DNA of 64,000 bases from positions 32,001 through 96,000 of IMG/VR virus record IMGVR_UViG_3300037484_000374; one strand, written 5' to 3'. The stretch's first letter is position 1, and every line of letters begins with the position of its first letter. Below the pieces are notes generated by a model. The model was not told the origin of the DNA and did no database searches. It worked only from the letters and a program-made list of their open reading frames with translations. Of the stretch, positions 1,591 to 16,776 are shown piece after piece. This DNA is from a virus. The translations under genes were made by a program, and so were the position numbers.

Positions 1591-2424
1591 TTATATATCT
1601 GTTATCAATAACTCTTTTGATTGGAATCCAGCGGCCTGTATGTGACCACCACCACCAAATTTTTCTGCTATTCTACCAACATCGATACCATCTTTGTCAG
1701 TGAACAAAGAATATTTCCAGAAGCCCGAGTTCATATATGTAAAATAGATTATAAAATCATATTTTTCTTTATCCCATTTACTATCTGCAAATTTTGAGTT
1801 TACAAGACCCCTGTTTACAGCAATACATGGGTGACCGGCAAAGCGTGTGTTAAATGCGTGGAAGTTACAATATTCCTTGGCTTGTATTTTTTCATATGCC
1901 ATAATTTTAAGACCACCATGAACAATAGATGCAACGTGTTCGTGGGTTTCATTGATAAACAATTCAACCCAATTAGGGTCTTCCGGTGGCCACTCACTTA
2001 TCTTCATACCATACTGGAATGGTAGAATATTTGGGTCTTCATGTGCCCACACATCATATCTTCCAAGTAGTTTAACAGCATATGGTATCTTTTCTGTTGA
2101 GCCTGTAATATACTCCCATGTCAACTCACATCCAGCGGTTCCTATTCTTCTCAACCCCTTGATATTATAATCTACCATTCTCTCAACACCAGTACGATGA
2201 TGATCTATCCAGTGAAGATTACACATATCATTGAGTTTTAACATATCATCAAGGGATTCAATGGTAAAATCCACCATATACACAGTTTCCCCTTGTCTGA
2301 TTTTACTAAAATCAAGAGGTATATCGTAATTTATACCGATACATTCACATAGTGGAAAAAAGTATTTTACAATAGCCGCACTACATTTTCCATCGAAATC
2401 CGATGAGTGATAATAAACTTTGAT
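1591..2424 (-). CDS. DHH/DHHA1 family phosphoesterase (reading frame extends 47 codons upstream of the ORF-track start)
   Basis: YYHSSDFDG motif I, MVDF, WIDHH, RYDVW, GGGGHIQAAGF; open frame from ATC at 2424. Confidence 0.88.
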   Translation of the reverse strand: MKVYYHSSDFDGKCSAAIVKYFFPLCECIGINYDIPLDFSKIRQGETVYMVDFTIESLDDMLKLNDMCNLHWIDHHRTGVERMVDYNIKGLRRIGTAGCELTWEYITGSTEKIPYAVKLLGRYDVWAHEDPNILPFQYGMKISEWPPEDPNWVELFINETHEHVASIVHGGLKIMAYEKIQAKEYCNFHAFNTRFAGHPCIAVNRGLVNSKFADSKWDKEKYDFIIYFTYMNSGFWKYSLFTDKDGIDVGRIAEKFGGGGHIQAAGFQSKELLITDI

Positions 2425-2435
2425 AATAACCCCCC

Positions 2436-2669: not shown

Positions 2670-3528
2670 AAAATAAACTCATAGTCTCATGAGTGTTGTT
2701 TAGGATATACTCTCTGTTCATCGGCACCAATAATATATTCACTTTACTCAAGAAAAATTTATCATATTGTTTATCAAAATCAACTTCTACCTGAAACTCC
2801 TTTGGCCAATGGTGATAAGATACGGTGTCTATGTCGTATGGATTTTTCTTTATATATACAACCTTTACTTTATCACCCTCGTTAATTACCTCGTATTTAT
2901 TTTCTACTCCATGGTGTTTTAGTAGGAACCTGTAATTCCACACACCCTTTACATGCCAAGGTGTTCTTTTTATTTTCTCACCTGTACCGAGATATTTTTC
3001 AAGGTTCTTGACACCAATATTTGAACTGATATCCTCTATCTTGGCGTTTTTCATTACTCTTTTATATGTTGCTATTATATCCCTTATTTCAGTATCGTTA
3101 GCCCCTCGAAGGATCATTCCCAGAATATTTTTAAGAGCGTTCCTGAACACTGTAGGTGTCTCTGAGCGTATAATTTCGAGGCCGGTGACTTCTATCTTAT
3201 CACAATTAAAACCCTCTTCATTTACAACATTATAACCATACTTCTTTTTCTTGACAAACAGAATAGATTTACATACGATTTCCTGTTTAAATCCGATCTT
3301 GAAATCTTCAACAGCTGAGTTGTATGATATCTTCTGTGTTTCGTTGTACGCTCGATCTTCAACATATGATTCTATGATCTTTGATATTCTCAAAACAAGA
3401 TCACACTTTTCCATATCAGTGTGTTTATTCCACTGTTCGGGGGTGACACCTCTATTATATAGGAAATCCCGAACCCCTATAAAAAGCGAGTCAGTATCGA
3501 TGTAATAGATATAGTCATTCTCTTTCAT
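2659..3528 (-). CDS. gp43: Family B DNA polymerase, C-terminal subunit (gp43B-like: motif C and thumb)
   Basis: YIDTDS motif C, KKKKY, VTGLEIIRSETP, TPWHVKG. Confidence 0.92.
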   Translation of the reverse strand: MKENDYIYYIDTDSLFIGVRDFLYNRGVTPEQWNKHTDMEKCDLVLRISKIIESYVEDRAYNETQKISYNSAVEDFKIGFKQEIVCKSILFVKKKKYGYNVVNEEGFNCDKIEVTGLEIIRSETPTVFRNALKNILGMILRGANDTEIRDIIATYKRVMKNAKIEDISSNIGVKNLEKYLGTGEKIKRTPWHVKGVWNYRFLLKHHGVENKYEVINEGDKVKVVYIKKNPYDIDTVSYHHWPKEFQVEVDFDKQYDKFFLSKVNILLVPMNREYILNNTHETMSLFFGE

Positions 3529-3911
3529 CTTACTGGAACCAACATGTCTATATTTCTATATATTAATTGACAAATATCGCTATGAACCAATGGATTTATC
3601 TCTTCCTCTGTCGTGTAAATGAAATATCTCTTTGATTCGAATTCGTATGAGAATCTTCTGTAATTAAACCCACATTTACCGTTTTTATATGATTTAATAT
3701 ACATTATCGGGGTTGTTTTGTATGGGGCATCATCCCATATACGACCGCTCATAGGGCCATCAATGAACAACCCAGTAGGTTGTTTTTTTTGTCTATTACT
3801 TGCGAAACCCATAATAATCCGAATAACAATGTAACCCATACAAATATACCATACTGGGTCGGTAACCATAATTTTTAGAAATTCAATCATGTTCTGTAAA
3901 AAATCTATCAT
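3525..3911 (-). CDS. Hypothetical membrane-anchored protein
   Basis: N-terminal hydrophobic helix; stop overlaps the gp43B start. Confidence 0.6.
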   Translation of the reverse strand: MIDFLQNMIEFLKIMVTDPVWYICMGYIVIRIIMGFASNRQKKQPTGLFIDGPMSGRIWDDAPYKTTPIMYIKSYKNGKCGFNYRRFSYEFESKRYFIYTTEEEINPLVHSDICQLIYRNIDMLVPVR

Positions 3912-4098
3912 AATATAACCCCCATATTAAACCCTTTATTTTCTTAGATATATAATTAAATAACGTTATCATTCCTGTCCATAATAATCCGAATACCAAA
4001 CTGACCACCACAATAAACACCATCTTAATCTAAAATTTAGGATCGGTTATCATCCACACAAATGTACCACATAATTCTTTTAATGTTTCCAGTATCAT
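3883..4098 (-). pseudogene. Small membrane protein gene with an internal TAG
   Basis: MILETLKELCGTFVWMITDPKF*IKMVFIVVVSLVFGLLW; TAG at 4030-4032; N-terminus resembles neighbour 3525..3911 (MVTDPVW). Confidence 0.45.
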
Positions 4099-4109
4099 AA
4101 CACTAACCT

Positions 4110-4496
4110 CTATTTAATTTTTTCATCAACTTCTTTAATTTCCTGTTCGATTCCTTCAAGACTTTTTGTATACCGATCAACACGTTGCTTGTATTTTTGC
4201 TTACCGGTATCGTCAAATTTGTCTTCGTTGTCTTCTAGTTGACGAGTTATCGCCTCTTTACGTAATTCTAATACCTGCCTTTGCTGTATCATGTCTCCAC
4301 GTTCACTATCCTTCTGAACAACAGTTATCTCAGAAGCAAGAGCGACATAGGTGACAACGTTCTCGGTGAACCACCATGTCCCAGCACCACCTATTACTAT
4401 TAATAATACCACAAAAACTGTCTTTTGTCCTAAATTATCTAACATAAATTTTAAAATTACTTTAACCATACTAATCTCCCTTTTTTTATAATTCAC
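4110..4496 (-). CDS. Membrane-anchored coiled-coil protein
   Basis: TM segment VFVVLLIVIGGAGTWW followed by a charged coiled coil; likely start at 4469. Confidence 0.65.
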   Translation of the reverse strand: MNYKKREISMVKVILKFMLDNLGQKTVFVVLLIVIGGAGTWWFTENVVTYVALASEITVVQKDSERGDMIQQRQVLELRKEAITRQLEDNEDKFDDTGKQKYKQRVDRYTKSLEGIEQEIKEVDEKIK

Positions 4497-4659
4497 AAAA
4501 CGGGCTGTGCTTACATGTCAACCGAGCGGGGCATTTTGTGCATCGATGAATTTTTATTCTCTTCGGTTTATTACGATCTTTAATCTTTTTTATTATAGCT
4601 ATAACTACTAAAACAACAAATGAAACATATTTTATAGCTATTTTAGATATACTTTTCAT
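4486..4659 (-). CDS. Small membrane protein with Cys-rich tail (57 aa, below ORF-track cutoff)
   Basis: MKSISKIAIKYVSFVVLVVIAII...CTKCPARLTCKHSPFCEL; start overlaps the endonuclease stop. Confidence 0.55.
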   Translation of the reverse strand: MKSISKIAIKYVSFVVLVVIAIIKKIKDRNKPKRIKIHRCTKCPARLTCKHSPFCEL

Positions 4660-5888
4660 AGTATAAATTCCTTAATTTTTTCAAGACATTTTTCTTTGTT
4701 AAAATTCCACAAATTTTCATCTATTATTAAGAGATTAATATTATTTTCTTTACACTGTTGTTTTTTTATCTTGTCTCTTATTTTTCTTTTTGGTAATGAG
4801 TGCCAATAAACACCGTTGAATTCTATTGCTTTATTTAATTCTGGAAGCCATATATCCAGTTCAAGATTGAACCCTGTTTCTGGATTGACAATCTGAGTCC
4901 TATCATTGGATATAATTATATCATCATAAATGTTTTTGATAAATTCAAAAATTTCAATTTCAGCTTTTGATGATGTTGATTCATCATAGCATTTTGGACA
5001 TCGAATACCCTGTTTAAAACTATCCCACACCACTTTATACACATGACCTTTTGGGCATTTTACTTTTAATTTTGTATTTGAGTTTTTGTATTCTTTACTC
5101 AGTAATTTATATCCATCTTTCTCTATCTGTTCTTTGACAAATTCATGTGTAAGTTTCTTGTTTCCAGAACATTCCGAGCATCTTTGTCCATGATTAAAAC
5201 AATCATATACTACTTCATATTCATGATCCTTTGGACATTTTACTTTTAATTTATTTTTATTATTTTTATATGTCTTACTTAAAAGTTTATACCCTTCTTT
5301 TTCAATTTGTTCTTTGACAAATTCATGTGTAAGTTTCTTGTTTCCAGAACATTCCGAGCATCTATAACCTTGTTGGAAATCATTCCATTTTACCTTATAT
5401 TTATGTCCATTTGGACATATGGTTTTCAATTTAGTAAATGCGTTTTTATATTCTTTACTTAATAATTTATACCCTTCTTTTTCAATATATTCTTTTACAT
5501 ATTCATGTGTGAGTTTCTTCTTACCGGAACATTCAGGACATCTATTTCCCTGTTGAAAATGACCCCAGTTAACTTTATATTTATGTCCTTTAGAACACTT
5601 TACTTTCAATTTTGTTTGGGCATTAAAATATTCCTTACTTAATAATTTATACCCTTCTTTCTCGATCTGTTCCTTTACATACTCATATGTGAGTTTCTTC
5701 TTACCAGAACATTCAAGACATCTATTTCCCTGTTGAAAATTATTCCATGTTACACTCCATTCATGTCCATTTGAGCACCGAATTTTTAGTTTTGTATTAT
5801 TATTTTTATATTCCTTACTTAATAATTTATACCCTTCTTTTTCAATTTGATCTTTCACAGCCTTATATGTTAATTTTTTCAATCCCAT
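4656..5888 (-). CDS. Free-standing homing-type endonuclease: 5 zinc-ribbon repeats plus Vsr-like PD-(D/E)XK domain
   Basis: Five ~60-aa repeats (KKLT..VKEQIEKEGYKLLS..C..GH..RCxxC); LELDIWLPELNKAIEFNGVYWH nuclease core. Confidence 0.85.
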   Translation of the reverse strand: MGLKKLTYKAVKDQIEKEGYKLLSKEYKNNNTKLKIRCSNGHEWSVTWNNFQQGNRCLECSGKKKLTYEYVKEQIEKEGYKLLSKEYFNAQTKLKVKCSKGHKYKVNWGHFQQGNRCPECSGKKKLTHEYVKEYIEKEGYKLLSKEYKNAFTKLKTICPNGHKYKVKWNDFQQGYRCSECSGNKKLTHEFVKEQIEKEGYKLLSKTYKNNKNKLKVKCPKDHEYEVVYDCFNHGQRCSECSGNKKLTHEFVKEQIEKDGYKLLSKEYKNSNTKLKVKCPKGHVYKVVWDSFKQGIRCPKCYDESTSSKAEIEIFEFIKNIYDDIIISNDRTQIVNPETGFNLELDIWLPELNKAIEFNGVYWHSLPKRKIRDKIKKQQCKENNINLLIIDENLWNFNKEKCLEKIKEFIL

Positions 5889-7747
5889 TACTTTTCTTTT
5901 ATCTCTTCTATAATACCAACCAATTCTGGTCTTATGTTAGGGTTATTTAATAGTCTGTTCACAAACATCTCACCTTCGAGAATGGTATTCCTTCCACATG
6001 AAGTGATGGCCTCTGAAATATTCACATTGAAATAACGAGAATATGGTACGGCTGTCACACCGAAACTCGCGTTTATTATCAATTTCAATGAATACTGTAA
6101 AGCATGTTTTTGAATTGACAACAACACAAGATTTGCTTTTTTTTCGGGGTCTTTTTCTTGTTTTGCTTCTTCTTTATATGTGAACTTATTACCCTTTTCA
6201 ACCTTTCTCTTCAAAAATATATTCTTAACAACAGCGGCATAAACACCTGTTGGTTTATTCATGAAAATAGAACCACATGGTGCTATGGCTAGAAGACCAT
6301 GCTCTAATGCCTTGTTGAATTTACTAAGTTTATCACCTTCATAATATTCAAATCCAGTATTTTTAAGAATATGAAATGGGGGAAATTGTTTTTTACGTAC
6401 ATATTGTATAACTATATTGTAGAATGGCCGACCATCCTCGCCTGTTGTATGAACACCTGTCTCTCTTTTAAATTCCTGTAGGTGCTCCTTTGTAAACCCA
6501 ACAACCCTTCCAAAGTATGTCTCAATGCTCATATTCAGAGTTATTATTGCAGTGGGGTAACTAGAGGTAATATCCAAATCAATAACCCATTCATGGAGTC
6601 CCTTGTTAGGTTCCTTTACAAATGCCGCCGGGAAGTATTCTTGAGACCCCCCATTAAATTCAGGGGCACATAGGTTATTTCTCCTGTAGTAGGTTATCAA
6701 CAAACCCTCAACAAGTTGTGTCTGACTACAATAGTTTTTCATTGGGTTTTTACATAAAAGACAAAGTGTTTCTATGAGAAAAATATAAGCCAGCTTCTTT
6801 TCAAGTTCTTGTACAATTCTACTATCGTTTATATTATACTCAACGTATAAGTCATGATTTTCATTATATAAATTACGCAATGTGTCGTAATCACTATAGT
6901 CAAGTTTCGCACCAACCTTCTCAAGCCTTGCAACATAATCGAGTTTGTGATTTTCAAGGTTGTGCTGTGTAAACCATTTATATATACTCATAAAATCAAG
7001 AATGGTAACACCTGCAATATCTATATTCCAATTATCGATATTATCCATTTTCCACATTTTAACCAGACCGATAGGTGATAATTTCTTATATAGTTTGGTA
7101 TTTGTTCCGAACAATTTCTGTGTTCTTCTGATAATATATGGAAGATCAAAGCCCCCCATGGGATTGTTTTTAATATCAGCGCAATAATTCCAGCCTGTCA
7201 TAACGTCACATGGATTTTCTCTCTTCCAAGTAAAATACCTTTCGAGTAAGTCCTTTTCGTCATTACATTTTACATATGTAACATCATCAACGTTTATCGC
7301 TCCACATGGTGTATATTTTTTGCATCCAAATACCTGCACACCTTTTGAATGTGCTATTGATATTAATGTGATTGGCCAAGCTGTTTCGTTGGTATTTGGG
7401 AATTCACCTGTAGAAAAAACTTCAATATCTTCATAGTGAATTTCAAGTTTCGGTGGTTGAATATCTGAATCTTCTATTTCGTAATATCTCTCGGCAAAGA
7501 ATTGAATTACAGGGAGAACCTTGTTTTCGTAACAAGAATTGGTATTCTGAAAATCATTATATGATCTATAAGAATCAAATTCCTTTCTTACAACAGGAGC
7601 ACCATCAATTGTTTTGATAACACTCTTATTGGTTTTCAAATAAACAAAGGGAGCCCACACTACATTGTCATAGAAATTCTCCCCGTTTATCTGTTCCCAG
7701 ACATGAACAATTGAATTTTGGTTGTCATAATATATATTTTTAATCAT
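5888..7747 (-). CDS. gp43: Family B DNA polymerase, N-terminal subunit (gp43A-like: exonuclease, motifs A and B)
   Basis: DIE ExoI, TGWN..FDLPY ExoII, YNIND ExoIII, DLDITSSYP motif A, KLIINASFG motif B; lacks motif C. Confidence 0.93.
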   Translation of the reverse strand: MIKNIYYDNQNSIVHVWEQINGENFYDNVVWAPFVYLKTNKSVIKTIDGAPVVRKEFDSYRSYNDFQNTNSCYENKVLPVIQFFAERYYEIEDSDIQPPKLEIHYEDIEVFSTGEFPNTNETAWPITLISIAHSKGVQVFGCKKYTPCGAINVDDVTYVKCNDEKDLLERYFTWKRENPCDVMTGWNYCADIKNNPMGGFDLPYIIRRTQKLFGTNTKLYKKLSPIGLVKMWKMDNIDNWNIDIAGVTILDFMSIYKWFTQHNLENHKLDYVARLEKVGAKLDYSDYDTLRNLYNENHDLYVEYNINDSRIVQELEKKLAYIFLIETLCLLCKNPMKNYCSQTQLVEGLLITYYRRNNLCAPEFNGGSQEYFPAAFVKEPNKGLHEWVIDLDITSSYPTAIITLNMSIETYFGRVVGFTKEHLQEFKRETGVHTTGEDGRPFYNIVIQYVRKKQFPPFHILKNTGFEYYEGDKLSKFNKALEHGLLAIAPCGSIFMNKPTGVYAAVVKNIFLKRKVEKGNKFTYKEEAKQEKDPEKKANLVLLSIQKHALQYSLKLIINASFGVTAVPYSRYFNVNISEAITSCGRNTILEGEMFVNRLLNNPNIRPELVGIIEEIKEK

Positions 7748-7759
7748 AAAATGTTCTCT

Positions 7760-8059
7760 TTATGAGACAGGCCCATCACCACAATCGAATTCATAATCCT
7801 TACTGACTGTAAACTCACCAAGTATATAATGGGCATCTGTCTCTTTTATATCATACTTCTCATGGATTTGTTTGATTTCATGAGTTCTACCACCAATCTC
7901 ATCACAAACGTTATGGGATAGCTCTCTGTCTCTCTCATAAGCACATACAAGGGCTTGTATCGGGTGCATCCAGCCACTATATGTTAAAAACTCACCGGAC
8001 TCATGATGGACATATATTCTACTTGATGGCATCGGTACAAACTTTCTTGAATTTCTCAT
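7760..8059 (-). CDS. Hypothetical protein
   Basis: 99 aa, overlapping operon packing. Confidence 0.6.
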   Translation of the reverse strand: MRNSRKFVPMPSSRIYVHHESGEFLTYSGWMHPIQALVCAYERDRELSHNVCDEIGGRTHEIKQIHEKYDIKETDAHYILGEFTVSKDYEFDCGDGPVS

Positions 8060-8382
8060 CTGAATTTACCTCTTAGATACATTTTTGTGTAAATCTTTTC
8101 AATCTCACGGCGCAGTTTATATTCTTCATAAGATTCATCAGCAAGTCTTACTGGTCCTTTAAGGGTTGTAATTGTCATATTCTTGAACCTTTTAAGGAGT
8201 TCCTGTCTATATTCAAGGGCTATATCTTCTGGTGTTTGTATGATGGGGGCCTCGTCTTCCCAAACCATATAACCGTTGGCAATTTCACCATCTACAAGTG
8301 TTTCTATTACTTCATCTTTCAACTCTTCATCCATGCTCGTTATCTCCTGTTTTTTAAATTTCTTCTGGTTGGTATAGATCAC
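8056..8382 (-). CDS. Hypothetical protein
   Basis: 108 aa, overlapping operon packing. Confidence 0.6.
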   Translation of the reverse strand: MIYTNQKKFKKQEITSMDEELKDEVIETLVDGEIANGYMVWEDEAPIIQTPEDIALEYRQELLKRFKNMTITTLKGPVRLADESYEEYKLRREIEKIYTKMYLRGKFR

Positions 8383-8542
8383 AAGGACAATTTTTGCCAG
8401 TACACCAAATACCCCTATCTATATTTTGGAAATGAACACAAATATCCATATCCTCGTGTAATGCTATCCAATCTAACCACCTGACCCCATCATAAAAAAC
8501 TTTATCATATCTTGGTGGGGTTGGTTTTATAAGTTTTATCAT
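8354..8542 (-). CDS. Small Cys-rich hypothetical protein
   Basis: C..F..CTGKNCPC. Confidence 0.5.
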   Translation of the reverse strand: MIKLIKPTPPRYDKVFYDGVRWLDWIALHEDMDICVHFQNIDRGIWCTGKNCPCDLYQPEEI

Positions 8543-8779
8543 AATTTCTCAATTTGTTATATATATGTATCTAAGTGCCGACCCTTTCCGTATGATATAC
8601 TCTTATTACTTTCAGTGACAGGTACAACTTTAATTCTCTTCTCATAAACAGGAATATCTTTTCGAGGTGTAAACTGTGGGTATGGTGTTATCATTTTTCC
8701 CAACCAACATCTTTCTTGCATTTATCACATTTCATAATGAACCCCCTTTTCACCTATAAAATTGTTTATCTTATGGTGT

Positions 8780-8807
8780 ATTATAACATATACAAATAAG
8801 ATGTCAA
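8780..8807 (-). promoter_or_regulatory. Sigma70-type promoter
   Basis: TTGACA-N16-TATAAT. Confidence 0.65.
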
Positions 8808-8812
8808 CATTT

Positions 8813-9550
8813 TTATTCTTCTTTATGGGTGACTATGTAATATTTTTCTGAACCGTCATCCTTTTCGAGAGATAACATACCACCCTTCTGTGCTTCAACC
8901 CACCTGAAAGATACTGTGAATTTATCGGCTTCCTCGGCAACAATTGTCATGAGGGCGTTTATATTCTTGAAATCAAAACACAAACTAACATCCTTATATA
9001 CCACACCAGATAGAGCAAACTTTATACCGTTGGAAAACTTATTGGTTTTATCAGTAGTTTCCATGTGGAACTCGTTATTCTCAACTGAAAAATATACCTT
9101 GTTGAACTTACCCGCGATCTTTCTGATCTTATCATATACTTCGAGGAAAGAATTATCTAGCTTGAATGTATGGAATGTTTCCCCAATACTTTTTGGTTCA
9201 GTGCCATTATAATAAGTTGTGATATGCTGAGAGCAATAGAATATATTTGATTTTTGTCGGCCAGATTTCAAGATTATCTTCTGATCCTTGATATCTATCT
9301 CGGCCATTTCATCATCAATCAGGTCGAGGTATGTTTCAAGATGTTGTTTCGGTTCATTGAAATTCATCTCTACTTCATATGGGATACCACCAATAATATC
9401 ATTCTTGAGATCAACAATGGTGATACAGCCCTGTCCTATCATGGAAGATTTAATGGAATCACCATCTACCATAATCCTTACGTTGGTGATACTGTTGTTT
9501 AGTGTTGCCTTTTGAATAAAGGTCTTGAATTTTTTCACATTTATTTTCAT
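8813..9550 (-). CDS. gp45: Sliding clamp (gp45-like)
   Basis: 245 aa beta-rich protein with clamp-like size and pattern, next to clamp loader and polymerase genes. Confidence 0.75.
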   Translation of the reverse strand: MKINVKKFKTFIQKATLNNSITNVRIMVDGDSIKSSMIGQGCITIVDLKNDIIGGIPYEVEMNFNEPKQHLETYLDLIDDEMAEIDIKDQKIILKSGRQKSNIFYCSQHITTYYNGTEPKSIGETFHTFKLDNSFLEVYDKIRKIAGKFNKVYFSVENNEFHMETTDKTNKFSNGIKFALSGVVYKDVSLCFDFKNINALMTIVAEEADKFTVSFRWVEAQKGGMLSLEKDDGSEKYYIVTHKEE

Positions 9551-9584
9551 ACAAATTATCTCCTGTTTTTAATTTTATATAATT

Positions 9585-9613
9585 ATTATACCATTTTATA
9601 ACTGGTTTGTAAA
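9585..9613 (-). promoter_or_regulatory. Sigma70-type promoter for gp45
   Basis: TTTACA-N17-TATAAT. Confidence 0.65.
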
Positions 9614-9628
9614 CTAATTATACATCTA

Positions 9629-9803
9629 TTAATTCTGATACTTTTTTTCAATATCGGTTCTTAACACATATGTATCTATCTTGTACTCATCGGCTAACTG
9701 TATCACGTGTTTTGAACCACGGCTTAACCCGCTGTATAGTACAGCATAATGAACAATGGGGGTAATATATTACATCTCTGGAACCCGCAATTATTACTCT
9801 CAT
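9629..9803 (-). pseudogene. Internally deleted, frameshifted SLOG/DUF2493-family gene
   Basis: MRVIIAGSRD N-terminus and SRGSKHVIQLA C-terminal motif in different frames; core missing. Confidence 0.6.
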
Positions 9804-9827
9804 CCCATAGACCAGAAAACTAGGTGG

Positions 9828-10016
9828 TTATATATTGCTGGTCTTGTACCAATACTGAATATATCCTTTCAATGGTGGTGTAAGACCACACCCTATTCTC
9901 TCTATAACAGCATAATCATAACTTTCTTCATGCATGTCATCTGCATTGTTTAAAAAAGGTGTGCTGACACTGAGCGAATGATGGATACCAACCAATACAA
10001 TGTTTATCCATAACAT
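9828..10016 (-). CDS. Hypothetical protein or remnant
   Basis: DMHEESYDYAVIE segment looks protein-like; start uncertain. Confidence 0.35.
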   Translation of the reverse strand: MLWINIVLVGIHHSLSVSTPFLNNADDMHEESYDYAVIERIGCGLTPPLKGYIQYWYKTSNI

Positions 10017-10029
10017 CGTTGAGTATAGT

Positions 10030-10374
10030 TCATATTCTCATCAACCTCAAGGCTTCTAGTTTACTTACTTCATGATCTTCCATGAATTGTGCAATGACCT
10101 TTTCCTCTTTTGCACTGTGTTTACCTACTTTTTTAACCCATTTTATATATCTATTACCTCTTGGGACTCGATGAAAGAAATATTTAAAAATCATCTCATC
10201 TGGTAGTGTAAAGACATATGGTGTTATATCCATGACAATATCAATAAGTGAAGAGTCATGGGCAAGCCACATACAAATCATATAGGCGTTACAATCCTTT
10301 TTTGAGTATTTGTAAAACCTTGATTTCATATAGATTGCATTTAGGCAATCGAACATTGGGTTTGATTTGATCAT
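10030..10374 (-). CDS. gp62: Clamp loader small subunit (gp62-like)
   Basis: FDCLNAI..., YMICMWLAH, VPRGNRYIKWVKK pattern; near gp44 and gp45. Confidence 0.75.
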   Translation of the reverse strand: MIKSNPMFDCLNAIYMKSRFYKYSKKDCNAYMICMWLAHDSSLIDIVMDITPYVFTLPDEMIFKYFFHRVPRGNRYIKWVKKVGKHSAKEEKVIAQFMEDHEVSKLEALRLMRI

Positions 10375-11154
10375 TTATTCCTTTTTATCCCCATCATCGT
10401 CATTTAGTGTTTCTGAATCTTGATATCCCTCAATACTTCTACCGTGATACATGGCCTCTATTTCTTTACAGAGAACATTCTTGACAATGCGAATAATACC
10501 TATTTTCATCTCATCAAGCTGTTCATCTTCTGACAGTCTTTCGATTGTGTTGTTAACAACATTTGATATTTTTTTAAGTTTACCCGCAATAAAAAGTGAT
10601 CTTGCTGATGCATCCACACAATCTGCTATCATTAAAATTGCCGCTTCTGTTGTTTGTGGTTTTACCGACTTGTACCGGTAATGATCCTCAATAGCTGAAC
10701 CTTTACTGATCTCGTTTGCCTTATTATAGAATGGTAAAAGAACAGTATCACCATGATGTTGAGATATAATTTCAATAACCTTTATCGGTACATCTTTTAA
10801 TTGTATCAATTTCATCACAGATTGAGCTACATGCCCTGTGATTATATGGTATGAAAAAAATGGGTCTTTTATCCCATCATGTGGGTTTTTACCTGTTTGG
10901 TTTTCCATATAATAAGATGGGTGGTTCATTTTACCGATATCATGTAGCATGGCCGCTGTTTTTAAAACCATAACATCAAGTTTTAAATCTATTGCAATAG
11001 ACTCGCAAATAGTGGCCACATTCTGACAGTGCTTAAAAGTTCCAGGAGCTATCTCACGGAACCTCTGCATCAGAGTTGATTGTGGGTCTATAAGTTCTAA
11101 CCCAAACGAAGGGTTTACCTTATCTTCTTGTTTTATACCTTTATCTTCACTCAT
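10375..11154 (-). CDS. Stand-alone HD (HDIG) domain of the PgpH/7TM-HD cyclic-dinucleotide phosphodiesterase family
   Basis: APGTFKH, HDIGK, YMENQ..NPHD, QHHG, HYRY..KPQTTEAAILMIAD..ARSL. Confidence 0.85.
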   Translation of the reverse strand: MSEDKGIKQEDKVNPSFGLELIDPQSTLMQRFREIAPGTFKHCQNVATICESIAIDLKLDVMVLKTAAMLHDIGKMNHPSYYMENQTGKNPHDGIKDPFFSYHIITGHVAQSVMKLIQLKDVPIKVIEIISQHHGDTVLLPFYNKANEISKGSAIEDHYRYKSVKPQTTEAAILMIADCVDASARSLFIAGKLKKISNVVNNTIERLSEDEQLDEMKIGIIRIVKNVLCKEIEAMYHGRSIEGYQDSETLNDDDGDKKE

Positions 11155-11381
11155 AATGATGTCACCTGCAATTCCTTTTCTCTGATTGTTAGGCGACAGT
11201 GTAAATAATTTATATAATAGGTAACATCTTCTCTACTTCTCTTTCCCCAATCATAGATATAGACATATCGCTCAACATATTGTTTGGCCAACTTTAACTG
11301 ATCAATGTTGGTACAAGAATTTATAACCTTATCACATCTGTCAACCATATCCATTGTTCTTCTCTGTGTTATCCCGCACAT
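11151..11381 (-). CDS. Hypothetical protein X (copy 1)
   Basis: 76 aa; duplicated at 12304..12567. Confidence 0.6.
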   Translation of the reverse strand: MCGITQRRTMDMVDRCDKVINSCTNIDQLKLAKQYVERYVYIYDWGKRSREDVTYYINYLHCRLTIREKELQVTSL

Positions 11382-11390
11382 ATCAGTTTT
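11158..11390. repeat. 233-bp exact direct repeat, copy 1
   Basis: Identical to 12344..12576. Confidence 0.95.
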
Positions 11391-12303
11391 ATATTGCCTT
11401 TTTGGACTTTAATTTAAACACAAAATTCATGAAGTTAATTTCTCTAATAACTCCCCTGCTATCGTTTATGTTCGCTTCCCCTAATTCAAGGATAGCAACC
11501 CAATCATTTTTAAAAACAGTCCCATCATTATTATCAGTGATTAGTTTATATATGTAAGTATATAATCCTGTGTAATTTATAACATTACTTCTAAGAATTC
11601 TCAGGACATTATCTGGATCACCCGACTTTATGGCCTTGACCACATCACCGAATACATCATTTGATGTTGTCCTAATCAATTTTTCTGACAGTTCACCGTT
11701 GATCACATTCTCTTTTAAAGTACCTACTGTGTCACGGATATCTGGATAGCATGTCTTTACGATTTGGGCAATTGATTTTGGGTTGAATTTTATACCCTCG
11801 CTTGTTAAAATCTTTACACAGTGCTTGTAGATTACATCCCCTGGTGGGTTATTGATTTCGATTACTCGGCATCTTGATTTCAACTCAGGCATTATTTTAT
11901 CACTGTAGTTACATGCAAAGATAAAACGAGTTGTTTCGATTACCTTTTCCATGAGGTCACGTAACATGGCCTGTGCCGACTGTGATAAATAATCAGCCTC
12001 GTTGATATACATAACTTTGAGTTCACTATCAAAACCCATCGCTTCTGCAAATGGTTTGATTTTGGAACGAACAATATCTATACCAGTTTCATCTGATCCA
12101 TTTATTCGGCAAAAGGTATTCTGCGAGGAATTTTTGTAGATATCAACAAATGTTCCTTTACCAACCCCAGGAGGCCCAACGAGTATGGTATTTGGTTGTT
12201 CTGCCAAAACCTTCTCTAACTGTGTCCTGACATCATCATTAAGAACCATATCATCTAAGCTGGTCGGATTATGTTTAACTTCCCATACATCTTTGTTTAT
12301 CAT
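11389..12303 (-). CDS. gp44: Clamp loader large subunit (gp44/RFC-like AAA+)
   Basis: WEVKHNP, GPPGVGKG, INGSDETGID, NEAD, KSRC. Confidence 0.93.
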   Translation of the reverse strand: MINKDVWEVKHNPTSLDDMVLNDDVRTQLEKVLAEQPNTILVGPPGVGKGTFVDIYKNSSQNTFCRINGSDETGIDIVRSKIKPFAEAMGFDSELKVMYINEADYLSQSAQAMLRDLMEKVIETTRFIFACNYSDKIMPELKSRCRVIEINNPPGDVIYKHCVKILTSEGIKFNPKSIAQIVKTCYPDIRDTVGTLKENVINGELSEKLIRTTSNDVFGDVVKAIKSGDPDNVLRILRSNVINYTGLYTYIYKLITDNNDGTVFKNDWVAILELGEANINDSRGVIREINFMNFVFKLKSKKAI

Positions 12304-12567
12304 TTATTCCCCTCTCTTGTTTTTGTTTATTTTTTTCTTTAGGGATGTCACCTGCAATTCCTTTTCTCTGATTGTTAGGCGACAGTGTAAATAATTTATA
12401 TAATAGGTAACATCTTCTCTACTTCTCTTTCCCCAATCATAGATATAGACATATCGCTCAACATATTGTTTGGCCAACTTTAACTGATCAATGTTGGTAC
12501 AAGAATTTATAACCTTATCACATCTGTCAACCATATCCATTGTTCTTCTCTGTGTTATCCCGCACAT
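12304..12567 (-). CDS. Hypothetical protein X (copy 2), carrying the HU C-terminal tail
   Basis: Identical to copy 1, then SLKKKINKNKRGE. Confidence 0.55.
   Translation of the reverse strand: MCGITQRRTMDMVDRCDKVINSCTNIDQLKLAKQYVERYVYIYDWGKRSREDVTYYINYLHCRLTIREKELQVTSLKKKINKNKRGE
12307..12348. repeat. 42-bp direct repeat (partner 12576..12617)
   Basis: TTCCCCTCTCTTGTTTTTGTTTATTTTTTTCTTTAGGGATGT flanks the second 233-bp copy. Confidence 0.9.
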
Positions 12568-12576
12568 ATCAGTTTT
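12344..12576. repeat. 233-bp exact direct repeat, copy 2
   Basis: Identical to 11158..11390. Confidence 0.95.
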
Positions 12577-12860
12577 TCCCCTCTCTTGTTTTTGTTTATT
12601 TTTTTCTTTAGGGATGTTGCCGTTTTGAATATAATGGTATCACGATCAGGAACAGAAAACGTTTCACCAGTTTGTGGATTACGTGCCATTTTTCCTTTTC
12701 GTGTCTTGACCTCAAATCTCCCAAAGTCGATAATAGTTACATTTTCTTTTTGAACATTATCAATTATACATTCAAAGATTATATCAAAACACTCACGGGC
12801 AGACTTTACAGACATACCCACACTTTTTGATAGATGATTAATAATATCTGATTTCTTCAT
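12555..12860 (-). CDS. HU/IHF family DNA-binding protein
   Basis: MKKSDII, FGRFEV, ARNPQTGE. Confidence 0.92.
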   Translation of the reverse strand: MKKSDIINHLSKSVGMSVKSARECFDIIFECIIDNVQKENVTIIDFGRFEVKTRKGKMARNPQTGETFSVPDRDTIIFKTATSLKKKINKNKRGEKLICAG

Positions 12861-12869
12861 ACTAGTATA

Positions 12870-13016
12870 TTATTTCCCTTGCCCTCTGTACTTCTTTGCA
12901 TGTCTGGTATGTGGTGCATTTTTGCTTGTTGGTCTACGGGAAAGTCTGCCACAACCAATTGTTGTTTTTTTCATACTGTGTTTTATGACATCAGAATATA
13001 CTTTTGCTCTTGACAT
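12870..13016 (-). CDS. Small highly basic protein ending KKYRGQGK (48 aa, below ORF-track cutoff)
   Basis: MSRAKVYSDVIKHSMKKTTIGCGRLSRRPTSKNAPHTRHAKKYRGQGK; AGGAG RBS upstream. Confidence 0.75.
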   Translation of the reverse strand: MSRAKVYSDVIKHSMKKTTIGCGRLSRRPTSKNAPHTRHAKKYRGQGK

Positions 13017-14535: not shown

Positions 14536-16776
14536 GTGGCTATCAAAAACTTCGTATTAGACACCAACGTAATAATTTCAAGTAAGGACGCTATAAAGAC
14601 AATTATGAACGGAAACGATGGCGGTGAAGCAAATAATATATTCATACCATATACGGTTTTGGAGGAATTAGACTGTCTTAAAATGAATACAAAACTCAGA
14701 CCAATGGTGTATGAGGCATTTGAACAATTAAAAGAGTATAAAGATCATATCAAATTTATAGGTAATAGAGAAAAGAAAACACCGGATAATAAAATACTGG
14801 ATGAAATTCGTGATGCCGAACTTGAACTTAATTTAGGCGATGAGAATACAATATTCTTAACAAATGATATCATGCTACAGATAAAAGCAGAGGCCGAGGG
14901 TATCAATCCACAGGAATTCAAAGATTCAAAACCATATGAATCCGAGAGTCAACAATGTGATGGCTTTGTAAACGTTGATGAGGGTGAAAAGTTTTTTCCG
15001 AACTGTTTCTACTGGCAAGATGGAAGGTTGATGTTTAATGGAGTAAAAGAAGTACACACTGTACCTGATCATGCACCATGGAAGATAACACCTAAAAGTT
15101 ATTACCAAAATGCCGCTATTGATCTGATGAAAAATGATGAAATTAACCTCGTTACGATTCAGTCAAGGGCCGGTCTTGGTAAAGCACAACCATTAGATGC
15201 CAAAATATTAACACCTAATGGATGGAAAAAAATGGGTGATTTACAAGTTGGTGATATGGTTATAAATTCACAAGGAGAACCGACAAAGGTTTTAACAATA
15301 CACCCACAAGGAGAAAAGGAAATATATAGAGTATTATTTAATGATAATAGTAGTACAGAATGTTGTGATGATCATTTATGGTTTGTTAGAAAAGAATATC
15401 ATAAATACCAAGTAAAAAAATTAAGAGATATAAAAGATAATCTATATAATGAAAAACGAAAAAGATTGAATTGGTTTATACCGACAGTATCACCAATAAA
15501 ATTCCAAAAAAAACCATTACCAATAAAACCATACTTGATGGGGGTTTTATTGGGTGATGGTGGAATGACAACAAGTAATGTAAGTATAACAACAGTAGAT
15601 AAAGAAATAATAGATCATTGTAGTGATATATTACCAGATGGGTTATATATCAAACATATATGTGAACACCAATATCATATTAACATGCTTGATAGAAAAA
15701 TTGGCGGTAAAAAAGATATTTTTACAAATATTATTAACAAAATACTATATGAATTAAAATTATTTAAACTGAAATCACATGAAAAATTTATACCAGTTGA
15801 TTATTTATATTCATCTATAGATGATAGGGTACAAATACTCAGAGGATTGATGGATACAGATAGTGGTATTCTTAAAGATAACAGAGTTGAATATCATACT
15901 TCTTCATCAAAATTAAGAGATGGTGTTATTTTTTTGGTGAGATCACTTGGAGGTAGGGCATATTTTAATAAAAAAACACCATATTATATCTATAATGGGA
16001 TGAAAAAACAAGGTAAGGAAAGCTATACTGTTAGAATAACATTACCATCTGATATTAACCCATTTTTCTTAAAAAGAAAGGTTAATATATATAATGGTTA
16101 TAAGAAATATCCACCATCAAGAGGAATAAAAGAAATAAAATATATTGGTAATAAAGAAGCACAATGTATCACGGTTGATTCAGATGACCATATGTATATC
16201 ACAGATGATTTTATCGTCACCCATAATTCATATATATCACTGGCCACGGCATTGGAACAGACATTCGAGAAAAAGAAATATGAGAAGATATACATCTTTA
16301 AAAATATAGTAAATATTGGACAGGGGTTGGGTTTCCTTCCAGGAAGTCTTGAGGATAAGATAGAACCATACACCAGATATATGGTATCATTAATTCAAAA
16401 ACTCAGTGGTGTCAGAAAATTGAGCGAGAGAATTATGGATGCTAATGGGGTTATTAATCCACATTACATCGAGATTCTTCCTCTGACATTTATCAGGGGT
16501 ATGAACATTGAAGATGCATTTGTAATCATCGATGAGACACAGAACATTTCTCGACAAGAAATGAGAGCACTTCTGACAAGAATGTGCGGTAATGTTAAGG
16601 TTTGTTGCATCGGGGATACGTCACAGGTCGATGCTATGTTTCTCAATGAAATGAATAACGCTCTTAACTGGACTGTTAAATTATGTAAAGGCCAAGAACA
16701 CTATGGTCATATAACCTTGAAAGGTAATAAATCAAGAGGCCCGATCACAGACATGGTTCTTAAAGTAGGATTATAA
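14536..16776 (+). CDS. phoH: PIN-PhoH (PhoH2/YlaK-like) ATPase with intein
   Basis: FVLDTNV..EELD PIN domain, AGLGK|S Walker A, LGFLPG, FIRG, IIDETQN, GDTSQVD. Confidence 0.92.
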   Translation: MAIKNFVLDTNVIISSKDAIKTIMNGNDGGEANNIFIPYTVLEELDCLKMNTKLRPMVYEAFEQLKEYKDHIKFIGNREKKTPDNKILDEIRDAELELNLGDENTIFLTNDIMLQIKAEAEGINPQEFKDSKPYESESQQCDGFVNVDEGEKFFPNCFYWQDGRLMFNGVKEVHTVPDHAPWKITPKSYYQNAAIDLMKNDEINLVTIQSRAGLGKAQPLDAKILTPNGWKKMGDLQVGDMVINSQGEPTKVLTIHPQGEKEIYRVLFNDNSSTECCDDHLWFVRKEYHKYQVKKLRDIKDNLYNEKRKRLNWFIPTVSPIKFQKKPLPIKPYLMGVLLGDGGMTTSNVSITTVDKEIIDHCSDILPDGLYIKHICEHQYHINMLDRKIGGKKDIFTNIINKILYELKLFKLKSHEKFIPVDYLYSSIDDRVQILRGLMDTDSGILKDNRVEYHTSSSKLRDGVIFLVRSLGGRAYFNKKTPYYIYNGMKKQGKESYTVRITLPSDINPFFLKRKVNIYNGYKKYPPSRGIKEIKYIGNKEAQCITVDSDDHMYITDDFIVTHNSYISLATALEQTFEKKKYEKIYIFKNIVNIGQGLGFLPGSLEDKIEPYTRYMVSLIQKLSGVRKLSERIMDANGVINPHYIEILPLTFIRGMNIEDAFVIIDETQNISRQEMRALLTRMCGNVKVCCIGDTSQVDAMFLNEMNNALNWTVKLCKGQEHYGHITLKGNKSRGPITDMVLKVGL
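15184..16227 (+). mobile_element. Class 3 intein with LAGLIDADG endonuclease (348 aa)
   Basis: Starts AQPLDAKILTP, ends VTHN|S; HLW, AQC and THN signature; MGVLLGDG and LRGLMDTDS motifs. Confidence 0.9.

Follow-up and report, generated by a model that had tools for sequence, protein, structure and literature searches.

A 64,000-nt stretch of viral DNA (hereafter the window) encodes, at positions 10375..11154 of its minus strand, a 259-amino-acid (aa) protein with an ATG start for which, judging from its sequence, "soluble PgpH catalytic domain" is an accurate description. This protein (hereafter the HD protein) and its closest relatives belong to a phage gene family, which our tree places in a clade separate from 7TM-PgpH. 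We propose that the HD protein is an early/middle-expressed c-di-AMP phosphodiesterase without sensor domains, a proposal to which we give an even chance of being right.

The source phage

The window comes from an IMG/VR virus record of 170,951 bp (71% complete by estimate, G+C 35%), of which it covers bases 32001-96000, and the sequence marks the source genome as that of a deep-branching T4-like phage. No cultured phage has a gp44 more than 31% identical to the one encoded here, and a distant DNA search of positions 8000-13000 against deposited phages gave no match. The same stretch turns up in metagenomes from sediment and soil, with nine runs holding at least about a quarter of the sampled words. 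Regarding the host, Shine-Dalgarno-like motifs precede 64% of the larger ORFs in the record, which only suggests a host using Shine-Dalgarno sites, and psbA was absent from all 45 HD-bearing viral records described below. A cluster of 12 tRNA genes, which includes a tRNA-Ile with anticodon TAT, lies outside the window at record positions 107182-114609.

Sequence and fold identity of the HD protein

The HD protein is matched by the Pfam HD profile (PF01966, E=4.6e-17) and by the NCBIfam HDIG profile (TIGR00277, E=8.9e-16), and no family was found for it among the PHROGs. Its sole significant sequence match in the PDB is the HD domain of Listeria Lmo1466/PgpH (4S1B/4S1C, E=3.3e-31), to which residues 23-239 align over chain residues 2-217 of 222 in 4S1B with 34% identity (phmmer); the runner-up in this search is a dGTPase with an E-value of 0.26. 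An AF2 model based on an 18-sequence family alignment (mean pLDDT 81.8) predicts a folded core at residues ~23-239, with residues 5-11 and an acidic C-terminal tail (239-259) predicted to be disordered. When this model is compared with known structures through Foldseek, 4S1C/4S1B again come out on top (TMt 0.86-0.89, rmsd 2.2-2.5 Å, E=2e-11), followed after a wide gap by an HD-GYP protein (E=0.02, TM 0.44), and YqeK, dNTPases and SAMHD1 are far poorer structural matches.

Three other identities within the HD superfamily were considered and rejected. A dGTPase/SAMHD1-type protein is not indicated by the PDB search (E=0.26) or by Foldseek (E at least 0.13, rmsd >11 Å), RNase Y is matched over residues 40-76 only (TIGR03319, 26 bits vs. 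a cut-off of 454), and the HD-GYP profile PF13487 scores 22 bits, below its cut-off of 27.2, with a TM of just 0.44. The HHE..DG.GYP motif was likewise not seen in the sequence of the HD protein. Grouping with dNTPase or RNase Y HD domains, which the initial annotation had named as the outcome contrary to its reading, appeared in none of the sequence, profile, fold and tree comparisons.

The claim of a soluble PgpH-type protein without a transmembrane or sensor region is borne out as well. The maximal Kyte-Doolittle 19-residue mean is 1.56 in the HD protein vs. at least 2.23 in all 120 listed long bacterial homologues, the HD core is preceded by just 22 residues, and neither the 7TM domain PF07698 nor the extracellular 7TMR-HDED domain PF07697 was found in the HD protein by Pfam. 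Among the listed homologues longer than 455 aa, PF07698 stands ahead of the HD domain in all 120 and PF07697 is present in nearly all, and the listed 7TM-PgpH homologues are 34-44% identical to the phage protein.

The complete PgpH/7TM-HD motif set that had been reported for this ORF is also there: in the alignment, H42, H71-D72, K75, H108, H133-H134 and D178 of the HD protein correspond to H514, H543-D544, K547, H580, H604-H605 and D648 of PgpH. The spacing of these residues agrees with the PgpH numbering, and all seven metal ligands (H, HD, H, HH, D) and the catalytic Lys of HDIGK are present. According to reviews, from which the roles of the PgpH residues are drawn here, D648 serves to activate the attacking water and K547 to stabilise the leaving group (PMC12072042). 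The eight catalytic residues are invariant in 119/119 short relatives, in 43/44 IMG/VR copies (the single non-conforming copy is a truncated ORF call) and in 120/120 bacterial PgpH HD domains. About 29 more positions are common to the phage and bacterial forms, including E84-N85-Q86..N90.H92 and R160-Y161..P166..E170, i.e., the ENQ..N.H and RY...P...E loops conserved both in the phage family and in bacterial PgpH. Four positions in the C-terminal helices (L207, G219, L228 and E231) differ systematically between phage and bacterial forms, and two of these, 207 and 219, are mostly basic in bacterial PgpH.

A family of short proteins in uncultured phages

At least 507 relatives of the HD protein were recovered in a search limited to proteins of 142-454 aa. 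The 120 listed short relatives measure 229-264 aa and are 45-56% identical to the HD protein, with several located on contigs of 100-220 kb, and IMG/VR yielded 45 loci of the family on viral contigs of up to 312 kb. In an unrooted tree built from 60 of the short proteins and the 60 bacterial HD domains nearest the query, short phage-type proteins and bacterial PgpH HD domains are split by a single branch (SH-like support 100). Searching 1.84 billion cluster representatives with a profile of the phage family placed 24 short clusters on top (217-347 bits), below which the scores pass without a break into those of full-length 7TM PgpH, matched along the entire profile at 190-217 bits, with 4,450 cluster representatives reaching E<=1e-30.

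In GTDB, phage-type copies (44-50% identity) were found only on short or phage-like contigs in MAG bins, and true bacterial PgpH are at most 40% identical to the HD protein across the full domain. Bins assigned to Thermoplasmata, Saccharibacteria and Desulfobacteraceae were considered as possible hosts, and were judged to hold mis-binned phage contigs (one of these, L050, has a phage-like polymerase). Conversely, the family was absent by tblastn from all 50,697 deposited phage records, which include phages of known c-di-AMP producers. Eight deposited "phage" records that did match the HD protein (tblastn, 32-35% identity) are unannotated Listeria, Enterococcus and faecal contigs, which we read as carrying bacterial pgpH. 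Because the phage clade sits on its own long branch and has low identity to bacterial PgpH (34-41%), its specificity could have shifted.

The HD gene and the clamp-loader operon

The initial annotation had located the HD gene between gp44 and gp62; this placement stands, although a 76-aa ORF (11151..11381, minus strand) between gp44 and the HD gene had been missed. The order on the minus strand starts with HU (12555..12860) and continues with a copy of the 76-aa ORF, the gp44-type clamp-loader large (AAA+) subunit (11389..12303; phrog_168 E=5.9e-62; PF00004, PF21328), the 76-aa ORF itself, the HD gene, the gp62-type clamp-loader small subunit (10030..10374; phrog_225 E=8e-15; PF16790 E=1e-10) and a probable gp45-type sliding clamp (8813..9550). 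In the window, gp44 and gp62 are thus not adjacent, as 1,014 nt holding two extra ORFs lie between them. The 76-aa ORF, to which no function is assigned, gave no Pfam, PHROG or NCBIfam match, and among the related loci only one (L002) has a weak relative of it. No family match was found in the same three collections for the gp45 candidate either; it is proposed from its position after gp62, which is shared by L002, L011 and L043, and it has its own strong sigma70-like promoter at 9613-9585 (11/12 matches).

These genes are tightly packed. Only 7 nt separate the gp44 stop from the 76-aa ORF, whose TGA stop overlaps the ATG of the HD gene in a 4-nt ATGA, and the gp62 ATG directly follows the HD stop (TAAATG), with an SD-like AAGGA for gp62 inside the 3' end of the HD gene. 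Contigs from four other sequencing runs bridge gp62, the HD gene and the 76-aa ORF, and one 8.2-kb contig (run X4) spans gp62 through the HD gene and gp44 into HU, so the arrangement is genuine and not an assembly artefact. Sigma70-like sites occur upstream of the clamp-loader operon, and no late TATAAATA was found on the minus strand between 1571 and 15809. This absence of the late TATAAATA, together with the tight packing with replication genes, points to early/middle expression, the HD gene probably being co-expressed with early or middle replication genes.

Several further features of this region were recorded. A 233-nt exact direct repeat (11158-11390 and 12344-12576) flanks gp44 and duplicates the 76-aa ORF, the copy at 11151..11381 being the downstream one. 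The repeat is variable: the duplication is missing from one contig of run X4, in which 12306 is joined to 12576, and in run X2 the contig holding the 233-nt repeat has ~2x the flanking depth. Contigs of runs X2 and X4 also carry a 17-nt insertion (TATAGTTATAGTC[T/C]GGA) at 10023, just 3' of the gp62 stop, which is absent from the window. Further along, the DNA polymerase (4656-7747, minus strand) consists of two ORFs of 619 and 410 aa, whose coordinates abut at 5888.

Position of the HD gene in related phages

The order gp44-x-HD-gp62 is found in just three of the 45 loci, namely L001 (the same phage), L002 and L043. In L011 and L020, which have clamp-loader proteins of 42% identity, gp44 and gp62 are adjacent and the HD gene lies a few kb off. 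Other lineages have the HD gene next to those for an NAD-dependent ligase and an HNH endonuclease, or between a Rad52-like/ClpB-like block and a Holliday-junction-resolvase-like nuclease, M24 peptidase and PRPP synthetase, or else beside DNA methyltransferases or after the DNA polymerase. The common setting of the HD gene is therefore a replication, recombination and nucleotide-metabolism region and not the clamp loader, and the clamp-loader placement, being limited to 3/45 related loci, is lineage-specific and without functional meaning. A search among the related loci for a small ORF that consistently accompanies the HD gene found none.

Two other observations were made in these relatives. 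In L002, a related phage of 204 kb, the gp44 match (2846-5154) comes in two pieces ~1.4 kb apart, which suggests that an element such as an intron, an intein or a homing endonuclease is inserted in the clamp-loader gene. In L038 (106-2766), as well as in L036, L040 and L041, an 886-aa hybrid histidine kinase with Tll0287-like, PAS, GAF, HisKA, HATPase and receiver domains is encoded a few genes upstream of the HD gene.

A DHH-DHHA1 protein in the same window

A DHH-DHHA1 ORF had been described at 1591..2424; it lies on the minus strand, encodes a phosphoesterase and is real (PF01368 E=3e-7, PF02272 E=4e-6, phrog_4771 E=3e-32). The two-step pathway in which it was suggested to act together with the HD protein is not supported: the two genes are 8 kb apart, PF01368 occurs in only five of the 44 other HD-bearing viral records (and in one of the six that are at least 85% complete), and the DHH protein has relatives in phages without an HD gene. 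The phages in question are Pseudomonas EL-like jumbo phages, a Xanthomonas phage and a crAss-like phage, and the DHH relatives adjoin polynucleotide kinase/phosphatase there. Host nanoRNases could in any case degrade pApA.

The start of the DHH ORF (1591-2427, minus strand) appears to be non-canonical. ATG, GTG and TTG are all absent ahead of the first catalytic motif, DFDG, and the frame stays open back to an ATT at 2427 or an ATC at 2424, just after a Shine-Dalgarno-like GGGGGG run. Starting at the first canonical codon (GTG 2283) would leave out the DFDG motif, and the sequence suggests that another codon is used.

Proposed function and alternatives

Given the PgpH-type identity of the HD protein, its solubility and its lack of the 7TM and extracellular domains, c-di-AMP hydrolysis is the most economical prediction for it. 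The HD protein would be a catalytically active HD phosphodiesterase with two metals, corresponding in free-standing form to the cytoplasmic catalytic domain of PgpH, and its gene would be transcribed and translated together with the clamp-loader genes, i.e., with early/middle replication genes. The enzyme would then hydrolyse the 3',3'-c-di-AMP of the host to linear 5'-pApA throughout infection. Among the processes that c-di-AMP governs are the uptake of potassium and osmolytes, the homeostasis of the cell wall and DNA-integrity signalling, and the predicted outcome is a collapse of c-di-AMP signalling to the advantage of the phage. What we infer for the enzyme comprises its substrate, its expression timing, its absence of regulation and its benefit to the phage, and the word "unregulated" should be read as a presumption from the missing sensor domains only.

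Two further points are relevant to this model. The DAC cyclase domain (PF02457) is absent from all 45 HD-bearing viral records, so the phage side of the pathway would be limited to degradation. A phage would also have a reason to lower c-di-AMP, since in Listeria its accumulation is reported in a preprint to inhibit phage production (bioRxiv 10.64898/2026.05.13.725036).

A first alternative keeps the chemistry and changes the selected target to the cyclic di- or oligonucleotides made by CBASS CD-NTases, type III CRISPR Cas10 or minimal Cas10. We consider this counter-defence function, which would make the HD protein analogous to Acb1, Apyc1 and AcrIII-1, unlikely. Phage enzymes destroying immune nucleotides are established in the cases of Acb1 and Apyc1 (PMC9117128), and the same role has been predicted for HD-GYP, HD-alarmone and DHH enzymes of jumbo phages (PMC7824862), but the PgpH HD domain has been described as highly specific for c-di-AMP (PMC5575661), and the loops that surround the active site are among the parts which the phage protein has in common with it. 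The HD-GYP cyclic-dinucleotide phosphodiesterases are the second-best structural neighbours of the HD model, and its gene shifts genome position among related phages as accessory genes do; yet it lies among replication/recombination genes and not beside recognisable anti-defence genes. Moreover, a c-di-AMP-degrading enzyme would trigger decoy-based systems such as Panoptes (PMC12657218). The sequence and neighbourhood of the HD gene offer nothing that specifically favours immune evasion.

A second alternative arises from the bacterial gene neighbourhood, where phoH immediately precedes pgpH in 68 of 75 loci (L051-L125) from many phyla, an adjacency which may hint at a role in RNA or nucleotide turnover beyond the c-di-AMP model. 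The main job of the enzyme in bacteria and phages would then be a PhoH-linked turnover, acting possibly on short oligoribonucleotides, pApA, 2',3'-cyclic ends or (p)ppGpp, with c-di-AMP hydrolysis as a secondary activity, and the chemical versatility of HD domains is in keeping with such a range. The phage does have its own PIN-PhoH (14536-16776, plus strand), and PF02562 is present in 6/6 HD-bearing viral records with a completeness of at least 85%; PhoH is, however, common in large phages generally, and our PhoH counts refer to HD-bearing records only. In the window, PhoH lies 3.4 kb from the HD gene on the opposite strand, and the two genes are never adjacent in phages (tens of kb apart in G001, G013 and G036), nor is YbeY, the third partner, present in any of the 45 viral records. 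Considering also the structural and enzymatic evidence that ties PgpH to c-di-AMP (4S1B with c-di-AMP bound; PMC5575661), we regard this turnover function as distinctly improbable.

Finally, a catalytically dead or purely structural HD protein, e.g., a nucleotide-binding protein or sponge, or a clamp-loader accessory as its embedding between gp44 and gp62 and its acidic disordered C-terminal tail might suggest, is hardly credible when all eight catalytic residues are invariant in >160 phage copies and the clamp-loader position is seen in 3/45 loci only, with L011 and L020 keeping gp44-gp62 adjacent and the HD gene elsewhere.

Novelty and significance

Full-text literature searches turned up no account of a PgpH-type enzyme from a phage or of a phage c-di-AMP-degrading enzyme. 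The HD protein is not a new kind of enzyme, with some of its relatives automatically annotated as "cyclic-di-AMP phosphodiesterase PgpH", and the general idea of phage phosphodiesterases directed against nucleotide signals is already established. What is new here is the architecture, in which a known catalytic domain is borne by viruses without sensor domains, and which makes up a clade of its own.

For many bacteria, c-di-AMP is essential or nearly so. It is tempting to speculate, at somewhat less than an even chance, that this family of several hundred members, so far confined to uncultured large phages, constitutes either the first viral class of enzymes erasing an essential housekeeping messenger (c-di-AMP) or a new HD-fold counter-defence nuclease acting on cyclic oligoadenylates. 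If the former is true, these phages would gain direct control of the potassium/osmotic homeostasis and DNA-integrity signalling of their hosts; if the latter, the HD enzyme would also be a natural trigger for Panoptes-type decoy-guard systems. Provided that it is active, a sensor-less PgpH domain in several hundred environmental phage lineages would open a new way of taking over the host and add a new fold to the viral erasers of nucleotide signals, and would supply a small soluble PgpH catalytic domain handy for biochemistry and for experimental c-di-AMP depletion.

Comparison with known systems

The closest known counterpart is PgpH itself (Listeria monocytogenes Lmo1466, B. subtilis YqfF; 4S1B/4S1C), to which the phage protein is homologous over the whole HD catalytic domain. 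The two have in common the fold (predicted for the phage protein), the metal ligands, the catalytic Lys and Asp, and the ENQ..N.H, QHHG, RY..P..E and D..EA..R loops. They differ in that the phage protein is soluble, 259 aa long and without the 7TMR-HDED and 7TM domains, whereas PgpH measures ~700 aa, and in that the phage gene is not beside phoH, in contrast to bacterial pgpH (68/75 loci). The phage forms also make up a separate clade with systematic substitutions in the C-terminal helices.

The stand-alone DHH-DHHA1 enzymes DhhP, Pde2 and NrnA, as well as GdpP, which are the alternative c-di-AMP/pApA hydrolases of bacteria, belong to a different superfamily from the phage HD protein. The distant DHH-DHHA1 protein of the window (phrog_4771), 8 kb from the HD gene, matches NrnA marginally (E=0.003, 16.5 bits).

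The HD-GYP enzymes (e.g., Bd1817, PmGH, V-cGAPs) are, like the predicted phage enzyme, two-/three-metal phosphodiesterases of the HD superfamily acting on cyclic dinucleotides, and a counter-nucleotide role has been put forward for those predicted in jumbo phages (Iyer et al., 2021, PMC7824862). Unlike them, the phage HD protein falls below the PF13487 cut-off, resembles the HD-GYP fold distantly (TM 0.44, E=0.02), and the HHE..DG.GYP motif is not seen in it.

The likeness to Acb1, Apyc1 and AcrIII-1 lies in the predicted role, that of a small soluble early phage enzyme which would destroy a nucleotide messenger of the host. Their folds are unrelated to that of the phage HD protein (Acb1 is a 2H phosphoesterase, Apyc1 has a metallo-beta-lactamase fold and AcrIII-1 is a ring nuclease), and their targets are immune signals induced by infection, whereas c-di-AMP is a constitutive housekeeping messenger.
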